A stretch of 64,000 bases of DNA from a virus (taxonomy: Duplodnaviria > Heunggongvirae > Uroviricota > Caudoviricetes). The notes under the pieces are model-generated. The model did not search any database and was not told where the DNA came from. It saw only the letters and a program-made list of their open reading frames with translations. The position numbers were made by a program, and so were the translations under genes. The stretch lies in IMG/VR virus record IMGVR_UViG_3300045988_162656. One strand, 5' to 3'. Shown here in pieces: positions 3,213 through 57,630 of the stretch (position 1 is its first letter; the number at the start of each line of letters is the position of its first letter).

Positions 3213-4898
3213 TCATTTAACGCGTTTGAAAACGTATACGCTGACTGTGATCCCTGTGTCTTCAAACTCGTTGGTAAACGACTTCCCTCTGGCATAAACG
3301 TAATTATCCATCGTCATCCAGTCCAGTATTGGCGCAGTGCCCGGCAATACTGCTACAAGACGCCCGCCGACTTTCAGATGCCCCAGCGCAGCCAGCGTGT
3401 GCTCTCTATGACGACCAAGCGAGTACGGCGGGTTCATAACGATTTTGTCGAACTGATAACCTGCGTTGTCCTCAGACCACTTTATGAAGTCGCAGCAAAT
3501 CGTGTTCGTATACCCTTTTCCACGCAGGATATCAGCGAAGAGAGGTGCGATTTCTATGCAGGTAACATCTTCCAGATCGGCGTTAATATAGGCCAGAAGA
3601 TCCCCACGTCCGGCTTGAGGCTCCAACAGCTTCTCACCAGGCTTCAATTCAGTGGCTCTGGCAACGTACTCAGCAATCAAGCGTGGGGTAGGGTAGAACT
3701 GGTGTGATTTTGTATCCGGTATTAAACCGGTAGCCACAATCGTATTTAGCGTATGGCCGATCTCATACGGGAACTGCCAGTGCTTTTTCTCCTGCACGCC
3801 GCCAATGAAGCTCAGTGTGCGCTCAAGCTCTTCCACCTGCGACTTCTGGAGAGCTGAATCAGAGAAGTACCATACGCCTTTGTCTTTGCTCAATCGCCCG
3901 TCACGAAGCGCAGTGCGAACCGGCACGGAGATCGTCTTCTGGATTAACCCGAACTGCTTTGGTGCCCGTGTTTTTGGCGCAGTTCGGCATGGCGCGGGGA
4001 TTGCAGCAGGCATACTGTAAGCCAGCACCTCATTCAACTTCCAGGCCACGTCAGGATGTATTTCAAAGTGAACGTTGCCGTTCTTGAACATCTTCACGCG
4101 CATCAGATTTCCATCGACGTTCATCCAGTCACCGGTCTGGCAGTCGTTTGCCCGATACGCAGCTGATAGCACCTCAGCAGTGCGGTTGATGGTAATAAAT
4201 TCTTTGTGCGCGAAGAAATGAAGCAAGACACGCAGATCGTCGATGTAGTCCTCTTTGCGATAGTTCACGCTAACGCTGTCACGCCAGAAATCAGAAATGC
4301 AGTCAGCGATTATCAGACGCTCGCTGAAACCGTTTGTCTTATTTGTCTTGTGCGCAGGACTCAGCGCCTTAAACAAGCCATACACGCGCTCAGAGAGATA
4401 TTTGTGCCTGTCATTCAGCAAATTAAGCATCGTTGGTATGACCGTTTCTGCTTTGAACTCCGGTACACCAACGAACTCTTTAACCTTCATCTGATAGCCG
4501 GTTCTGTCAGTTTTGATGACTTCCTGCTTGCCCTCGATAAATAGCTCACGCCACTCGTCGCGACGGGAAGCTGGCATGATCAGCAGAACGTTAGTCATAT
4601 CCGTAACCTTCCTCCAGTACTCGGCCCAAATATTCTGTTTCACCCATTCCAGATCGACGTTATCCAGCCAGACTCGATTCAAACGTGAGCGATCTTCATC
4701 TGGTCGGTGGTTTAGTCGAAGCAGGCGATTAATCATGTTGTGGCGTTCATCGCCATAAACGAAGTCGTGTACCTGATACATGAAGGAGATCTCTTTCTCG
4801 CACTCGGCCACAATTTCGTGGATGACGTTCATTTCCTGTCGATAGTCGATAGCAGTGTTTGAGCTGGCATCGCCCATGATGGAAAGGGCTGTATTCAT
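3213..4898 (-). CDS. putative N6-adenine DNA methyltransferase with large N-terminal domain of unknown function
   Basis: C-terminal third carries LEPQAGRGDL (motif I-like) followed by NPPY (motif IV), the order seen in N6-adenine MTases; N-terminal ~350 aa unrecognised. Confidence 0.6.
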   Translation of the reverse strand: MNTALSIMGDASSNTAIDYRQEMNVIHEIVAECEKEISFMYQVHDFVYGDERHNMINRLLRLNHRPDEDRSRLNRVWLDNVDLEWVKQNIWAEYWRKVTDMTNVLLIMPASRRDEWRELFIEGKQEVIKTDRTGYQMKVKEFVGVPEFKAETVIPTMLNLLNDRHKYLSERVYGLFKALSPAHKTNKTNGFSERLIIADCISDFWRDSVSVNYRKEDYIDDLRVLLHFFAHKEFITINRTAEVLSAAYRANDCQTGDWMNVDGNLMRVKMFKNGNVHFEIHPDVAWKLNEVLAYSMPAAIPAPCRTAPKTRAPKQFGLIQKTISVPVRTALRDGRLSKDKGVWYFSDSALQKSQVEELERTLSFIGGVQEKKHWQFPYEIGHTLNTIVATGLIPDTKSHQFYPTPRLIAEYVARATELKPGEKLLEPQAGRGDLLAYINADLEDVTCIEIAPLFADILRGKGYTNTICCDFIKWSEDNAGYQFDKIVMNPPYSLGRHREHTLAALGHLKVGGRLVAVLPGTAPILDWMTMDNYVYARGKSFTNEFEDTGITVSVYVFKRVK

Positions 4899-25439: not shown

Positions 25440-25705
25440 CACCAGGTGCGCCGAAGGTAGTAAATGCCTGTTTTAATTATTCACATATCCACAGGATAGA
25501 TCCTAATAAAGAGATCCATAGATAGATCCTTATATAGATCAAATAAGATCCCCGATCGCTGTAAGCCGCGCCACGACTGGTCTGAAGTCATGTTCATGTA
25601 TGCTGTCAGCGGTAATTGATAGTCTGTCAGCGGTTCACCGTATGCTGCCAACTGTTTTTGGTATTCTGTCAGCGGCAAATCAAGTATGCTGTCAGCGGTT
25701 GAATG
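25440..25705. promoter_or_regulatory. plasmid-type replication origin: DnaA-box-like site, GATC cluster and upstream iterons
   Basis: ATATCCACA (one mismatch to TTATCCACA) near 25485; five or six GATC within ~70 bp (25490-25560); about 5 copies/partials of TATGCTGTCAGCGGT at 25598-25700. Confidence 0.6.
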
Positions 25706-25719
25706 ACAAAGGTGTCCAC

Positions 25720-26814
25720 ATGTCCACAAAAAATAAAAAAGGTAAAAATAACAAAGAAGTAGAAGATAACATCGACAACTTTGAAGAAGGTTCCCTTGAA
25801 TTGTACACAGGGGAACTTGTCCCTAATAGCAACAATACAGTCCAACCAATTGCGTTGATGCGACTGGGGTTGTTCGTCCCCACGCTTAAGGGAACAAAAT
25901 ACAGTAAACGTAACAAGCCAAATGAGATCGATGCTTCAAAGGAGCTTGTCCAGCTCGAAGTAGCCCGTTCTGAAGGCTATTCCGATATCAAGATAACCGG
26001 TCCTCGTCTCGACATGGATCATGATTTCAAAACGTGGGTGGGCGTTGTGCGTTCGCTGGCAGAATACGGCGAACCTAACGGTCGTGTCGAGTTAAGCATC
26101 ACGAAATTTGCTAAGTTTTGTGGCTATCCATCGTCACAGATCCGCAAAACACTCCGCGACCGGCTTACAAACAGTCTTTTGAAGATCATGCGTACAACTC
26201 TGTCTTTCCAGAGAACGTATGAAGAAAAGAACGTCGACGGCTCTAACAAGATCTCGCTTCTGATGGTGCACCTCATCAATAGCGTGGACTACAACGAGCA
26301 GAAAGATACGGTGGTGTTCTATGCAGAACCGAAGCTGGCCGAACTATATCGCTTTGACCATAAGGTTCTTTTGCAGTTAAAGGTTATCAATAAGCTACCA
26401 CGCAAAGAAACAGCACAGGCTCTGTACACCTTCATCGAAAGTCTTCCAACCAAGCCTGCGCCGGTATCGCTTGCTCGATTGCGTGCGCGACTCAATTTGA
26501 GTAGCAGGAATGTCAGCTCGCAGAATCAGACTATACGTAACGGCTTAAAAGCTCTCCAAGATTTGGGCTATCTCGAATACAGCGAGATTAAGCGTGGGCG
26601 GTCGATCTATATCCAGATTCACAGCCGCAATCCAAAACTCAAAGTCGCACCGCCAAAACCTGAAGACATCGAACCCAAAAAACCAGATGAGAAAGCTGGG
26701 GAAATTGATGCCAAACAGAACATTATCAACAAGATAACCGAACTTTCGCAGAATTTGACGCCTGAAAATATCAAGATGATTGAGATCCTTTCCAATAGTC
26801 TCAAACTGCTTTGA
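25720..26814 (+). CDS. repA: iteron-binding plasmid replication initiator (RepA-like)
   Basis: Flanked by iteron arrays; ORF track start 25600 lies inside an iteron, so start set at ATG 25720 (MSTKNKK) with SD AAAGGTG. Confidence 0.7.
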   Translation: MSTKNKKGKNNKEVEDNIDNFEEGSLELYTGELVPNSNNTVQPIALMRLGLFVPTLKGTKYSKRNKPNEIDASKELVQLEVARSEGYSDIKITGPRLDMDHDFKTWVGVVRSLAEYGEPNGRVELSITKFAKFCGYPSSQIRKTLRDRLTNSLLKIMRTTLSFQRTYEEKNVDGSNKISLLMVHLINSVDYNEQKDTVVFYAEPKLAELYRFDHKVLLQLKVINKLPRKETAQALYTFIESLPTKPAPVSLARLRARLNLSSRNVSSQNQTIRNGLKALQDLGYLEYSEIKRGRSIYIQIHSRNPKLKVAPPKPEDIEPKKPDEKAGEIDAKQNIINKITELSQNLTPENIKMIEILSNSLKLL

Positions 26815-43968: not shown

Positions 43969-44355
43969 ATGTCTGACAAAAACATTGAATTTATAGAAAG
44001 TCGCTATGCTGCTTTTATCGCAGGGCTGATTGAATCCTCACCTATGAGTCAGGCCCAAATAGCCAGACTTATTGGTTATAAAAATGCCAACAACCTTTCT
44101 TTAATTAAAAGTGGTAAAATTCCTTTGCCTATCGATAAGGTTCGTCCGCTGGCGTTGGCGCTGGGTATTGAGCCAAGTCGTCTTATGATGATGGTGCTGG
44201 AAGAACGCCAACCTGAACTCGCAGCATTTTTATACAAAGAAGGCACCGCTCCTCTTAACGAGGACGAAAAACAGGTTCTTGCTGCATATAACGAGCGATT
44301 CGGTAAAGAGAAAGGCGCATCACAAAAGGTTGTTGAGGCCATAAAGTCTCTATGA
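43969..44355 (+). CDS. helix-turn-helix DNA-binding protein
   Basis: HTH-like segment SQAQIARLIGYKNANNLSLIKSGK; perfect palindrome GGTAAGCACTTACC ~30 bp upstream of the start. Confidence 0.6.
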   Translation: MSDKNIEFIESRYAAFIAGLIESSPMSQAQIARLIGYKNANNLSLIKSGKIPLPIDKVRPLALALGIEPSRLMMMVLEERQPELAAFLYKEGTAPLNEDEKQVLAAYNERFGKEKGASQKVVEAIKSL

Positions 44356-45660: not shown

Positions 45661-47574
45661 TTAGGTTGGGTTGTTGATGCTAATGGTAAGTGTTTCGATA
45701 GCAAGATCATGAGTTTGGTTGTTTGTTATATCTGTTAAAACAAAAGCCTCATCACCAAGAGCAATATTGTCTTTAACCAGCTTGAATTTACTCCCCGCCT
45801 TGCCATCGAGAACGGGAATTACAGTTCCTGTGCCTTTCTCATATTGCAACTCAAGAGTGTGCCAATTGTTGTCGTAGTCACCATATGAGTCTATCTGAAC
45901 ATTTCGATTATTGCCTGTCCTGTGCATCATAATGTTCAACTTGCCTCCAATTGTTTGAAGGAAGAAGTTAGCCAGAAACAGGCTCCCAGTACCGTCGAAT
46001 GATATATCGTCAGCAACAGGTTTACTGGTTTTGTAATATATACCAAAGCCAAACTTAGCTTTTTTTGGATCAGGGTTTCCAGATAATTTAAACTTACAAA
46101 GTAATTTACCTCCATTCTCAAGAAGAGTCTGTGCTATGTCAGTAGCTTTACTGATCGTCCAAGTTTCGTTGGAAACCGCTTTAGTTAAAGCAATTGCTTT
46201 TCCGTTTTCAACTGACTGAATATTTGCACCAGTTACAGTCCATCCTTGTTCAGTAGCGACATCACCACCAGCTCCAGTTAAGGAAATAACCGTTCGCGGG
46301 GTTGGAGTTGTGACAATGTTGTCATTTTTAGGTTGAGTAGGTTGTTCTTGTTTAATAATCTCACCTGTAACGCCATTCACAAAAGCAGATGATTTCGCTG
46401 AATGTGCAAGCAGCGCAGTTGCGAGACGATCAGATATTATTCCGCGTCGCTGCCATGAACCAAAATGACTCTCTCTACTCTCGGAAGTCCATGTTTTATT
46501 ATCCTTGCGATGACCGGAACCATAATAGCCAATAGATGTGATGTCTGGATCATCTGTAGGGCTATTGGTTAATACGTTATTATCATTCTCATCTTTCATG
46601 AATGGAACGAAATAAATTGCTTGTGAGGTTTTTCCCTTATAACCACCATAAACAATTTCGTACTGTTTTGGATATTTGTTTTTCCACCAGTGGGTCGTAT
46701 CGCCACAAATCCAGGGTACATTTGCAGCACTTCCGAAAACACATTGTGCGTCGTATTGAGATAGCTCTTTTCTGAAACCTTCGACCATCTTGAGGAACAG
46801 TTCGTTATGCTGCGAGTACTTGCCAGTTGCCAAATCAGCTTCGCCTTGCATCCAGACAACACCAAGAAATACATTCTTTTTGTTTTTACTTAAGGCCGCT
46901 TTTGTTCTGGCTACAATATCCTTATACAAAGGAGTATTTAATCCCCATTTTAAAGATGATTCGATTGCACCTGACTCTTCATAATATTGGCCTTCAGAGC
47001 CTGTAACAGTGAAACCAGAACCACCTCTTCCGCAAGGAACGAGCAAAATACCTGCGTTTGCTGGAATGAATGGTAATAGTTTTTTGCCAATGTGTAGTCC
47101 CTGACCAACACATCCATATTCAGAGTCGTTTGCTTTTGGATGCTTGAATTTAGTCATGTCTTGTACATCATGAAGACAGTGATCAGCGGGAATTATTTCA
47201 TTGTACTTACAGGCAAAACCACCAGGTTTAATATTGCTGCGTCGAGCTAACTGTTTTACGCGAGGATGTGGCCGATCAAAAGTTTTTGGCATAGGCAGTC
47301 CTTCGCCGTATGACATTGAGTTGGATTGACCTGCGATAGTAACTACATAATAATAGTCAGGCTCTTCATCTTCATTTGATACCGGTGTGGGCAATTGTGA
47401 TAAATCACCAGATCGCACAATTGCTTGATTGTACGCATTTGGTCCGCCCTTACTTGGTTCAACAATGTTTGGTGACTCGAAAGGTTGCCAACCCTCTGCG
47501 ATTTTCTTCGCAAGTTTTTCTCTAAGCTCTTTGCTTGATGATGCTGACAAAATATCATAGTCAATGAATGACAT
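45661..47574 (-). CDS. SGNH-type carbohydrate esterase (sialate O-acetylesterase-like) with C-terminal beta-rich domain
   Basis: Motif YYVVTIAGQSNSMSYG resembles the GQSN block of SGNH/O-acetylesterases; SD AAAGGAG. Confidence 0.6.
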   Translation of the reverse strand: MSFIDYDILSASSSKELREKLAKKIAEGWQPFESPNIVEPSKGGPNAYNQAIVRSGDLSQLPTPVSNEDEEPDYYYVVTIAGQSNSMSYGEGLPMPKTFDRPHPRVKQLARRSNIKPGGFACKYNEIIPADHCLHDVQDMTKFKHPKANDSEYGCVGQGLHIGKKLLPFIPANAGILLVPCGRGGSGFTVTGSEGQYYEESGAIESSLKWGLNTPLYKDIVARTKAALSKNKKNVFLGVVWMQGEADLATGKYSQHNELFLKMVEGFRKELSQYDAQCVFGSAANVPWICGDTTHWWKNKYPKQYEIVYGGYKGKTSQAIYFVPFMKDENDNNVLTNSPTDDPDITSIGYYGSGHRKDNKTWTSESRESHFGSWQRRGIISDRLATALLAHSAKSSAFVNGVTGEIIKQEQPTQPKNDNIVTTPTPRTVISLTGAGGDVATEQGWTVTGANIQSVENGKAIALTKAVSNETWTISKATDIAQTLLENGGKLLCKFKLSGNPDPKKAKFGFGIYYKTSKPVADDISFDGTGSLFLANFFLQTIGGKLNIMMHRTGNNRNVQIDSYGDYDNNWHTLELQYEKGTGTVIPVLDGKAGSKFKLVKDNIALGDEAFVLTDITNNQTHDLAIETLTISINNPT

Positions 47575-47799
47575 AATCGTTACTCCTTTAACGATAAACT
47601 TTAGCTAAAATCGATACGATTTTAGCAGTTAAAAAACGACAATAAAATATAAGAGTAATGTATGAAAGAACAATAAAAATTGCGTAAATGGATATGTGTA
47701 AAATATGTGGAATTTCACACACAGCGTTGAGCGGTCTGGTTTATGTTAGCGGAGTCTTAATCGAGTTGATTAAAAGGCCAAACCGCTCAACGCTGTGTC

Positions 47800-55121: not shown

Positions 55122-55862
55122 TTAATTAGATAGGGGATCAATAAACCGCCGTGCTTCTTCCAGTTCTTCTGGAAAGTGGGCGGAAATAAGGCGCTCTGGA
55201 ACGATTTCCATTAGCCAGATAGCGGAGAAAATTGCGCGTATGCGCTTGCTGCGAGGGATGGTGCGCAAACACTCCAGAATCCACTCAAAATAGCTTTCCT
55301 GAATCGGGTTGAACTGCATGTCTCCCATATGCTTAAAGCTAACAAGAGAGTCATCCAGACGGGTTGTTGCGCGTCTGGCTAATTTCTCTTCGAATATCTC
55401 AACCAGCTCTGGCTGCCACAAATGCTGTGGGCGCGGCAGCTTGTCCCACAGCCGTCGTGCAGCTGCGGAAAGAACGGTGGAGATAAAGTAGTCGTATGAG
55501 CAGCAATAGCGGTCAGCAAACTGGCGTGCTTTCCATAGAGACGTTTTATTGGCAGTCGACAACTCCTGATAAGGCAGGCGTTTTAACCCGGTGGTGAACG
55601 GAGCTGTTTCAAAGTGTTCGCGACCGTGCGTCAGCATGATATTTGAGTACTGACGTTTGTATGCCTCCGTAAACAGACAGGTGGCCATAAGAGGATGCAT
55701 GTCTCGGTAATCAAACCACTTCGTCTCGAAGAGTTCAGCCTCGTCTTTACAGCGCGACAAACCAATGTTTTCAGCGACCCACTTGTCCATAACAGCGGTA
55801 TTCCACTCTGTCATGAAGTCGTACTGGTCGTTGTCGATGGTATCGAAAAAGATTTGGCTCAT
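55122..55862 (-). CDS. hypothetical protein (possible helicase-associated replication factor)
   Basis: ORF track; GTG at 55871 rejected in favour of ATG 55862 with SD AGGTGA. Confidence 0.5.
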   Translation of the reverse strand: MSQIFFDTIDNDQYDFMTEWNTAVMDKWVAENIGLSRCKDEAELFETKWFDYRDMHPLMATCLFTEAYKRQYSNIMLTHGREHFETAPFTTGLKRLPYQELSTANKTSLWKARQFADRYCCSYDYFISTVLSAAARRLWDKLPRPQHLWQPELVEIFEEKLARRATTRLDDSLVSFKHMGDMQFNPIQESYFEWILECLRTIPRSKRIRAIFSAIWLMEIVPERLISAHFPEELEEARRFIDPLSN

Positions 55863-56136
55863 GTGGCTCACCTGGTAGGTAGTTACTTACTTATCACAAT
55901 GGACGGATGATAGCGACTGGTGTCAGTTTTTGGAAGTGAAAACGGAAGGGAGTTGTTCTGGTGGTGTCTTTTAAAAGACCTGCTTCCGTATATATTTAAT
56001 AAGTTACTTATTATTTATATACAGAAACAGGCTCCTAATGGATACCAAGAACAACATAATTTGACTCCAACTCCAGATGCTATGTCATTGACAGATTTAT
56101 CAAGGGAGATCATGTTAGAATTAGTGTTTTAGCCTC

Positions 56137-57210
56137 GTGGATATTGTCACCATGCGCATGAATAGACTTCCAGGATATGGCCTTCCCGAACTGGCTTTTT
56201 GGCCTCAGCCTAAATATGAACGGAATAAATGGTCGATGTTCTGTCTGAAACTCCGTAATGATGGAACCCTTGCTTGGTATCGGCGATATGTTGATCGTGG
56301 TATGCCAAACCACGCTGTTGATGACGACTACGATAACTATCCTGAAGCAAGAAAAGCGGCATTAGAGCTGAATAAAAACGTGAGCTTTGACATTGAAAAA
56401 CTTCCTCTATCTATGTTTCAAAAGAAGTCATTGCGTTTGAAAGTTGACAAAGCACTCAAAGCCAAATCACGTCTCATGGATGAAGAGTATATAATGCTCA
56501 ACGAAGCAATTAAGGCACACGCCAACGATCCGCGAGTGACATTAAATGAGTTAATAATTAACCCAGATTACGAAACTTTGCGTCAACCCCTTTTTGACGT
56601 GCTAAGCGAGATGCCTTACTTACATTTTGTTTTTCTTCCCAAATTCCAAGTTTCACTTCAACTCGTTGCTCCTAACACTTGGGAATGTTCATATAACAAC
56701 AAAGCTAAGACAGCGAAGATCTGCTACCAAGAACGCATAGCCAGAGGTTTTGGTTTATCAGGTGCTGCACATTGGGGAAAAACAAAAGCGACTATTCGCT
56801 CAATGCTTCTGCCGCGTGCTAACCGGTTACTGCAACTCGCCAGCGTAAAAAGAATGCTGGATGAAGCTCTCAGGAATGGGCAAAAGGTACTGGTTGTTGG
56901 CAACTTTGTTTTCTGGTTTGAGGACAAAAATCAGGTAGGTTGGAGTGTTAAAGTTGCTAGCGAAAGCGAAACCACCTCAAGAGGCAATACGCTCTGGAAA
57001 GAAGGAACTATCATTTCAAAAAATCACGGTCGAATTGTCGTGCTGCCGTATACAAAAGAAAACGGTAAACATGTAAAAGGTTATACCAAGAATGCCCCTA
57101 ACGACGGCAATGCAATTCCGAGACATAAGGATGAGTATGTTGAGTTGCCCTTTGAAATTTTGGATGGTGACTTGATGTTCAGTCTGTTCGGTGAGCTTAA
57201 CTACGAATAG
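56137..57210 (+). CDS. hypothetical protein (plus-strand, opposite to surrounding operons)
   Basis: ORF track; start ambiguous (GTG 56137 or ATG 56152/56158); preceded by a 6-codon ORF with strong SD. Confidence 0.45.
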   Translation: MDIVTMRMNRLPGYGLPELAFWPQPKYERNKWSMFCLKLRNDGTLAWYRRYVDRGMPNHAVDDDYDNYPEARKAALELNKNVSFDIEKLPLSMFQKKSLRLKVDKALKAKSRLMDEEYIMLNEAIKAHANDPRVTLNELIINPDYETLRQPLFDVLSEMPYLHFVFLPKFQVSLQLVAPNTWECSYNNKAKTAKICYQERIARGFGLSGAAHWGKTKATIRSMLLPRANRLLQLASVKRMLDEALRNGQKVLVVGNFVFWFEDKNQVGWSVKVASESETTSRGNTLWKEGTIISKNHGRIVVLPYTKENGKHVKGYTKNAPNDGNAIPRHKDEYVELPFEILDGDLMFSLFGELNYE

Positions 57211-57270
57211 CTTTCATAGAACGAAATATTTCTAAGGCTGTCCAATGCAGACCAGCCTTAGAGATTTATA

Positions 57271-57630
57271 TCAACCTTTCTTCATTAACTCGCGTTTAAT
57301 TTCATCGGTACGCATCGTGACATCGGCAGCAGTGATCGCCTCGTTAAGCTTCACGATGTCCTCGATTTCCTGCGGTGACTTCTCTGCCAGATGGAAAATA
57401 GCAGCACGAATCACATCAGAGCGGGTGAATTTCTCGAAGCGAGGGATGAACTTCATCATCTCCAGCAGTTCGAAGTATTCGTCCTCCAGTGACATTGTGC
57501 GGCTTTTAATTTTCTCTTTGCCACGAGTCGGGCGTCCCTGTGGTCTGACTGGTTGGCGCAAAGGAGTTGTGTTCTTAGCCGGTGCATCAGACTCTTTGCG
57601 CTTTGCTAGGTCACCCATTTTCATGGACAT
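57271..57630 (-). CDS. ribbon-helix-helix partition protein (ParG/ParB-like)
   Basis: C-terminal RHH-like segment FTRSDVIRAAIFHL; immediately downstream of parA, TAATG overlap. Confidence 0.5.
   Translation of the reverse strand: MSMKMGDLAKRKESDAPAKNTTPLRQPVRPQGRPTRGKEKIKSRTMSLEDEYFELLEMMKFIPRFEKFTRSDVIRAAIFHLAEKSPQEIEDIVKLNEAITAADVTMRTDEIKRELMKKG

Follow-up and report, generated by a model that had tools for sequence, protein, structure and literature searches.

A candidate single-protein anti-phage defence gene carried by a self-contained cassette in a variable slot of SSU5-like phage-plasmids

Autonomous transcription units within prophages, known as morons in the sense of Hendrix, form a descriptive class that does not specify a function. 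Accessory genes also collect at defence hotspots such as those of P4, where six of eight randomly chosen unknown genes protected against phages (PMC13586616). The systems Crouga, Bandua, Aernus, Toga and Reve, as well as one referred to as Hailong, each have recognisable domains (PMC13586616). The present analysis concerns a 64,000-nt stretch of DNA from a virus of the Caudoviricetes (IMG/VR record IMGVR_UViG_3300045988_162656; the whole stretch is hereafter the window), and within it a plus-strand gene at 56152..57210 that encodes a 352-residue protein of the orphan family PHROG 22329. The gene is the cargo of a self-contained cassette (56034..57265, plus strand), made up of a putative promoter, the gene and a terminator, which occupies a variable slot in the backbone of an SSU5-like phage-plasmid. 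With a probability put at about 0.55, this autonomous cassette would encode an unrecognised single-protein anti-phage defence candidate.

The slot becomes visible when the window is compared with sister elements of the same backbone. Homology with PhiR41_1 and Cyrano ends at about 56033, just past an AT-rich palindrome, and returns at about 57263, by the stop codon of a ParB-like gene, the limits being the helicase/primase operon (phrog_2500/helicase) on one side and ParB-like/parA on the other. In PhiR41_1 the slot contains a gene for a GIY-YIG protein that matches PD-T4-3 in PADLOC (1.6e-23), in Cyrano a gene for a DUF2971 protein that matches PDC-S31 (3e-41), and in pHCM2 and a Citrobacter freundii plasmid a homologue of the cargo gene and a DUF2971 gene side by side (positions 3632-4387 of the pHCM2 locus, L011). 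PD-T4-3 and PDC-S31 thus occupy exactly the same slot, one gene in each element, but show no sequence or domain similarity to the cargo protein, which has neither a nuclease nor any other recognisable domain. It is because the slot holds a known or candidate defence gene in these sister elements that a defensive function is proposed for the cargo gene. The arrangement resembles the P4 hotspots in its fixed backbone position and its interchangeable, mostly defensive cargo, and differs from them in the SSU5-like phage-plasmid backbone and in the slot limits, here a conserved palindrome on the left and the ParB-like gene end on the right. By analogy, the P4 result may serve as a favourable prior for the defence reading, although the cargo protein is without the recognisable domains of the systems described there. 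The interval from palindrome to ParB-like gene also provides a landmark for mining further cargo in SSU5-like phage-plasmids. The PDC-S31/DUF2971 gene of Cyrano and the ParB-like gene share a strand and overlap by 4 nt (locus L003, 5257-6416), and because of this overlap the former is probably co-transcribed with the par operon and not expressed from a promoter of its own.

The palindrome itself (55979..56031; inverted repeat I1) has 26-nt arms separated by 1 nt and is 85% complementary. It is present in all six SSU5-like lineages compared, backbone homology stops right after it, and it is best described from these alignments as a backbone feature marking the left slot edge. Possible roles are those of an operator or a terminator for the divergent helicase operon and of a recombination landmark for cargo exchange; an Rfam search of the palindrome returned sub-threshold microRNA-hairpin noise only.

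Carriage of the gene is variable. Absence or pseudogenisation of the main open reading frame (ORF) in relatives, which the original prediction had itself named as counting against it, is found in part: 138 of the 356 PLSDB plasmids with the left flank carry the gene, about 218 are without it, and one Klebsiella plasmid retains a 3' remnant. In this plasmid, Klebsiella pneumoniae pK5880C-NR, the last ~300 bp and the following hairpin are left beside the ParB-like gene (4501-4808, 89% identity), a piece that reads as a remnant of cargo turnover or rearrangement. The 1.4 kb to the left of the remnant carry no PLSDB annotation.

The hairpin (57228..57265; inverted repeat I6), with 13-nt arms and a 12-nt loop, lies between the convergent cargo and ParB-like genes. 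It is kept in Klebsiella and in pHCM2, where compensatory changes convert CTAAGGCTG/CAGCCTTAG into CTAAGGCGG/CCGCCTTAG, and PhiR41_1 and Cyrano lack it and differ in sequence at this place. It is therefore a probable bidirectional terminator that travels with the cassette. A terminator scan returned only two weak minus-strand terminator-like sites, both inside the gene.

At the other end of the cassette, TGTTAGAAT (56113..56121, plus strand) resembles the sigma-70 extended -10 consensus, TGnTATAAT. In the form TGnTAaAAT the element is conserved in all seven gene-keeping lineages in which the upstream region was compared (the window, two Klebsiella lineages, pHCM2/C. freundii, Enterobacter RIT637, Pantoea KPR_PJ and a Pantoea ananatis plasmid), reading TGTTAGAAT in the window, TGTTAAACT (TAAACT) in one Klebsiella lineage and TGTTAAAAT, TGCTAAAAT or TGATAAAAT elsewhere. 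It ends 30 nt before the ATG of the gene (28 nt in the P. ananatis plasmid) and is found in four genomic contexts, Enterobacter RIT637, Pantoea KPR_PJ and the P. ananatis plasmid having non-SSU5 backbones, which means that it travels with the gene into unrelated surroundings; on both strands of the window (128 kb) the motif occurs only 6 times. Further upstream, a -35-like hexamer, TTGACA (56088..56093, plus strand), precedes CATGTT by 17 nt and TAGAAT by 22 nt. Its counterpart is CTGACA in Klebsiella and GTCACA in pHCM2, it is not kept outside SSU5-type elements, and its role is uncertain. The conserved element is taken as the putative extended -10 promoter of the cargo gene. Transcription would then start about 7 nt past TGTTAGAAT, near 56128 (predicted range 56127-56130), and the mRNA would have a 5' untranslated region of ~24 nt with a weak Shine-Dalgarno (SD) sequence, GGA.

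Together, the travelling hairpin and the conserved -10 element point to a transcription unit that brings along a terminator hairpin and a putative promoter of its own. The cassette is an autonomous accessory unit, or moron, outside the replication and partition machinery: it shares with the morons of phages its terminator and putative promoter, its orientation on the strand opposite to its neighbours and its variable presence in close relatives, and differs in that the promoter is deduced here from a conserved extended -10 element. The gene is indeed a lone plus-strand gene set apart from its neighbours, as the original prediction described it, and one of only three on this strand in the window, the others encoding a Rep_3 initiator (25600-26814) and a helix-turn-helix regulator (43969-44355); nearly all other genes lie on the minus strand.

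The gene had been called as an ORF at 56137..57210, which is present on the plus strand and is annotated by PGAP with the same GTG start in an identical Shigella sonnei plasmid (WP_243668210.1). This GTG (56137..56139), which yields a 357-residue form, is probably not the real start: it is not conserved, being CCA in pHCM2 and C. freundii and GTA in Cronobacter, has no SD sequence (the preceding duplex amounts to +0.2 kcal/mol) and overlaps the weak GGA of the downstream ATG. That ATG, at 56152, is invariant across six phage-plasmid lineages, three of which have lost the GTG, and PHROG 22329 as well as nearly all of 346 homologues, most of ~352 residues, begin at its methionine. Its weak SD forms an anti-SD duplex of -3.1 kcal/mol, from which low expression would follow. 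The ratio of nonsynonymous to synonymous substitutions (dN/dS) is 0.08-0.15, and lower in the C-terminal third, indicating strong purifying selection; this ratio and the 346 homologues show that the gene is real. In Cronobacter sakazakii pGK1025B_1, the cargo ORF is open for 316 codons only and no coding sequence is annotated on it; the helicase and parA genes of this plasmid each align in two pieces, and the broken genes reflect either indel errors of the assembly or real decay of several genes.

The 346 homologues, at ~50% identity, come from Enterobacterales, Vibrio, Aeromonas, Shewanella, Pseudomonas and Marinomonas, with some in Beta- and Alphaproteobacteria and one in a metagenome-assembled genome of the Chlorobiaceae. 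The family is small, comprising 142 clusters at 50% identity in a profile search of 1.84 billion representative proteins, and every source labels it hypothetical; literature searches by accession number found no publication. Among 5426 complete Escherichia coli genomes, 37 carry the gene, always on plasmids, nearly all of which measure 103-126 kb.

The homologues are always single genes with no conserved partner, and their neighbours are frequently defence genes. In Pseudomonas these are Gabija-like AAA_15/OLD-TOPRIM with UvrD, AbiJ, P4 cII, Beta_protein and Bil-type ThiF/Multi_ubiq/BubE genes, and in Vibrio BrxR with Wadjet-type genes (DUF3584, MksE, DUF7281), DUF6119 and AAA_15/21. Other contexts hold SIR2-HerA with AAA_21 and DpnII; CAP12-TIR with a 1655-residue NERD-helicase; SMEK and SLATT within a prophage tail module; AbiTii and a NucS-like nuclease in a P22-like prophage; and a second SIR2-HerA with RadC and umuDC. 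A Vibrio P2/186-like prophage has the order cI, PD-T4-4 A/B, integrase and then the homologue. In a Salmonella lambdoid prophage the homologue adjoins the integrase end, in Aeromonas homologues lie in prophage regions, and on a P. ananatis plasmid the homologue is beside umuDC and par genes (near parA and parM). In total, by manual count, ~11 of 15 independent contexts have recognised defence genes no more than a few genes away, and among 145 de-duplicated neighbours of 27 further loci PADLOC finds 6 that are GajA-like, a coarse count in which redundant GajA models predominate. Twice, in unrelated contexts, the homologue divergently adjoins a umuD/umuC-like pair (Peptidase_S24 and IMS), namely in P. 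ananatis plasmids (L084-L086, 5872-9068) and in a marine gammaproteobacterium (L093/L094, 6099-9056), with a start-to-start gap of ~250-400 nt depending on the start call. This adjacency may reflect a shared hotspot of integrative and conjugative elements or plasmids, or SOS-linked regulation.

The genomic pattern behind the defence reading is thus twofold: a recurrent place, judged qualitatively, beside known defence genes in unrelated genomes, and a hotspot that holds PD-T4-3 (PhiR41_1) and PDC-S31 (Cyrano) in sister elements. The cassette and hotspot evidence would serve equally well for accessory cargo of another kind, such as an anti-defence aid to establishment, a factor excluding competing plasmids or phage-plasmids, or a moron that benefits host fitness. 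Counter-defence genes also occupy hotspots of mobile elements, as does the Rad anti-retron gene of SSU5-like elements; some homologues stand beside effectors or umuDC and not beside defence genes, and a toxic-effector domain is absent from the protein. Many homologues, however, lie in chromosomal defence islands (Wadjet-type with BrxR, SIR2-HerA, Gabija) with no phage structural genes in flanks of 8-10 kb, where an anti-defence protein would accordingly have no obvious use, and the slot alternatives match an anti-phage system (PD-T4-3) and a PADLOC candidate (PDC-S31). On balance, non-defensive cargo of this kind is considered rather unlikely, and a defence function remains the preferred reading.

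Models by AlphaFold2 divide the protein into a confidently modelled alpha/beta region (residues 1-245) and a beta-rich module (residues 246-352) that is very conserved in the alignment. Remote relatives keep the C-terminal module alone, with the pattern W.EG.IISRN.G..IV.PY...DG..V.GYTRN.P.EG, fused to unrelated N-termini that are likewise without a Pfam domain; W282, S289, N291, G293, P299, G310, T312 and R324 are invariant even in these. That the protein is unrecognised, as first stated from its translation alone, agrees with single-protein sequence searches of Pfam, NCBIfam, PADLOC and PDB, none of which returned a relative. A Pfam scan of all 43 aligned homologues (E <= 5) gave scattered noise only, Foldseek found no structural neighbour in BFVD at E <= 0.001, and a profile search of PDB produced a single lead, the foldon of T4 fibritin, at E = 2.5. 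In this weak match the consensus GhtknapndGkalpRhkdeyveL (GYTKNAPNDGNAIPRHKDEYVEL in the window protein) places the invariant G, DG, A, R and L of the family on identical foldon residues, which can be regarded as a lead for oligomerisation only. The histidines of NHG and GHT were considered as catalytic residues and rejected, remote relatives having Tyr, Phe or Thr in the former and Tyr in the latter; as these histidines are not invariant, no classical catalytic set is seen, and remote relatives retain no invariant set of His, Asp or Glu. The subfamily ends in an acidic-hydrophobic tail, LPFE.L.GDLM.GLFGEL.YE (57145-57207, residues 332-352), which is near-invariant within it and absent from remote relatives. 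The tail may serve as a peptide by which the protein docks to a partner from host or phage; more speculatively, DLMxGLFGELxYE may be read as beta-clamp-like or as similar to the tail of single-stranded DNA-binding protein.

A defence protein of this build would act alone against phages or other mobile elements and would be expressed at a low level during plasmid-prophage residence. Sensing of the invader would fall to the N-terminal region, which evolves faster and is exchanged for other sequence in remote relatives, and the near-invariant beta-rich C-terminal module would form the effector or an oligomerisation core. Since no invariant His, Asp or Glu catalytic set is found in remote relatives, action by binding or assembly might be guessed in preference to a classical nuclease or NADase, a guess with weak support. 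Several points weigh against the defence reading. With no enzymatic motif or known fold found, the mechanism is a guess; PADLOC 2.0.0 gives no match at E <= 1, and DefenseFinder 1.3.0 reported no defence system in pHCM2-like or pWPMR2-like elements (10.1101/2025.09.12.675607), a result that is consistent with novelty and lends the defence reading no support. The association with defence genes is a qualitative one from a manual count, and three to four contexts (the P. ananatis plasmid, the Salmonella prophage end, the Aeromonas prophages) are without a known defence neighbour. Hotspots hold anti-defence and other cargo as well. As regards expression, the -35-like TTGACA is poorly spaced for TAGAAT, and a two-hexamer scan found no canonical promoter at the TGnTAaAAT site, the promoter being a consensus match only.

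As far as PADLOC 2.0.0, one preprint and open-access text show, the family stands outside current defence catalogues. The wider proposal is more tentative, at somewhat less than even odds: the 352-residue protein would found a new single-protein defence family without known domain or fold, spread across Proteobacteria by prophages, phage-plasmids, plasmids and defence islands, and would represent hidden defence cargo of pHCM2 and pWPMR2-like elements, two SSU5-like lineages of clinical prominence. If this is true, a defence family with a new fold is added to the bacterial immune repertoire, and the SSU5-like phage-plasmids of Salmonella Typhi (pHCM2) and S. sonnei gain anti-phage cargo where current tools report none. 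It would also bear on the persistence of such "cryptic" elements and on phage therapy against both pathogens.

Leader-peptide attenuators such as those of ermC, cat and tnaC offer a second comparison, for the region upstream of the gene. Here, the SD-like heptamer AAGGGAG (56102..56108, plus strand; anti-SD duplex -8.4 kcal/mol) lies 3 nt from an ATG at 56112 which opens a 6-codon upstream ORF (uORF; 56112..56132, plus strand) encoding MLELVF and closed by TAG at 56130-56132. This ORF had been proposed as a leader peptide that ends just before the main gene; all of its parts are present, but it ends 19 nt before the conserved start. Under leader-peptide control, the mRNA would begin upstream of 56102, and translation of the short ORF would set the output of the main ORF through stalling, coupling or re-initiation. 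As in the attenuators, a short ORF with a strong SD is found just 5' of a weakly initiating gene (-8.4 versus -3.1 kcal/mol). An ATG or GTG is kept at its start position in the seven lineages, with an SD-like purine run in three, and the frame of five lineages extends 9-13 nt into the main ORF, so that coupling is conceivable.

Unlike the attenuators, the locus shows no conserved peptide or length and no alternative RNA structure. The frame from the equivalent ATG or GTG measures 6, 17, 33, 17, 17, 25 and 15 codons in the seven lineages, and the 6-codon form arose by a TAT-to-TAG change confined to the E. coli/Shigella lineage, relatives having TAT or AAT. In place of AAGGGAG, Klebsiella has AAGGCTG and pHCM2 has GGAGCC, and no SD-like run precedes the frame in Enterobacter RIT637, in Pantoea KPR_PJ or in the P. 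ananatis plasmid. The start is lost in Cronobacter (ATA), and most differences between the Klebsiella and pHCM2 versions alter the encoded residue, as in an unconstrained peptide. The 3-nt gap between SD and ATG is below the optimal spacing of ~5-9 nt. Folding of the 103-nt leader RNA gives a minimum free energy of -21.3 kcal/mol against a shuffle mean of -22.6 kcal/mol (z = 0.39), no better than the shuffles, and no Rfam family matches the leader. Moreover, in the Pseudomonas and Vibrio homologues the conserved ATG is preceded at 5-8 nt by an ordinary SD (AGGGAG, AAGGTG), and the retention of R-T-G at the uORF start is equally accounted for by the extended -10 element, whose TG the uORF ATG supplies. 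With transcription from the promoter at TGnTAaAAT, the uORF start would fall 5' of the transcript and not on the mRNA, which is probably the case.

Signals of this kind also arise by chance. In dinucleotide shuffles of the 280-nt intergenic region, a 4-mer SD with an ATG appears in 40%, and an ATG whose anti-SD duplex is at or below -8 kcal/mol in 15%; pairs of the same strength occur at 8 of 1056 ATGs antisense to genes on the largely non-coding plus strand of the window. The SD match of the uORF is mildly unusual, not compelling. The uORF codons form the tail of a 70-codon open frame (55920-56132), which was considered as a gene and rejected, the in-frame stretch before the uORF start being only 2 to 57 codons long in relatives. 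Leader-peptide control, unsupported by conservation of length, SD or peptide and by leader RNA structure, is therefore judged improbable. The uORF is most likely not a functional element and most likely a by-product of the promoter of the gene, a caution that a strong intergenic SD with an ATG can arise in this way.

The position of the gene had been described as lying between replication and partition modules. This is accurate insofar as helicase and primase genes lie to the left and the ParB-like gene and parA to the right; the "replication module" next to it is the helicase/primase operon, and the Rep initiator is ~30 kb away. Such placement, the conserved palindrome just 5' of the gene and the location of the P. 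ananatis homologue near parA and parM would suit an accessory protein of replication or partition that acts on the palindrome or the par locus. Sister elements of the same backbone, however, have unrelated genes instead, ~60% of flank-sharing plasmids are without the gene, the palindrome belongs to the backbone and not to the cassette, and most homologues are chromosomal. No Rep, Par or DNA-binding domain was found in Pfam scans of the protein and its 43 homologues, and direct repeats in the region are short and chance-like, giving no iterons. A part in backbone maintenance is thus very improbable. A role as replication initiator was likewise rejected, a Rep_3 initiator being present at 25600-26814 and a Rep domain missing from the cargo protein.

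The window itself is identified as an SSU5-like phage-plasmid from the genes around the ORF (DnaB-like helicase, primase, ParA, tail fibre, holin and endolysin) together with its identity to plasmids. Region 55800-57300 is 100% identical to S. sonnei plasmids of ~108 kb, at least 99% identical to many E. coli plasmids of 103-117 kb, and ~80% identical to Klebsiella phage-plasmids that were deposited as phages. Elements of the pWPMR2-like type (S. sonnei) and pHCM2 (S. Typhi) are highly conserved members of the SSU5 group (preprint 10.1101/2025.09.12.675607). The window resembles the pWPMR2-like lineage, found in extensively drug-resistant S. sonnei, and pHCM2 carries the gene.

Among the other genes of the window, the plus-strand ORF at 25600-26814 encodes a 404-residue protein with a Rep_3 WH1 domain (PF01051, 5e-9) and is likely the initiator of plasmid replication; the PLSDB gene table for the identical S. 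sonnei plasmid does not list it. The ParB-like gene (57271-57630, minus strand) lies directly upstream of parA and overlaps it. Its 119-residue product belongs to PHROG 5111 (unknown function), matches the aCcr1 family weakly (NF053762, E = 2e-4) and probably serves ParA as its centromere-binding partner. In the Cyrano record the homologue of this protein bears the label "RelE/ParE putative toxin", apparently a mis-annotation.

Within the backbone portion of the intergenic DNA (55877-55950), the blocks TAGGTAGTTACTTACTTATCA and GTTTTTGGAAGTGAAAACGGAAGGGAG are near-invariant in six SSU5-like lineages, and a second AAGGGAG is found at 55946, inside GTTTTTGGAAGTGAAAACGGAAGGGAG. A motif, GTTACTTA(C)TTAT, occurs at 55880-55894 and again within the palindrome at 55997-56011. 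These blocks and motifs may be regulator binding sites for the replication operon. Finally, a further TGnTAAAAT (TGCTAAAAT) is located at 47619-47627 on the minus strand, 45 nt 5' of the start of a gene for a 637-residue DUF6645 protein (45661-47574, minus strand), of which it is possibly the promoter.

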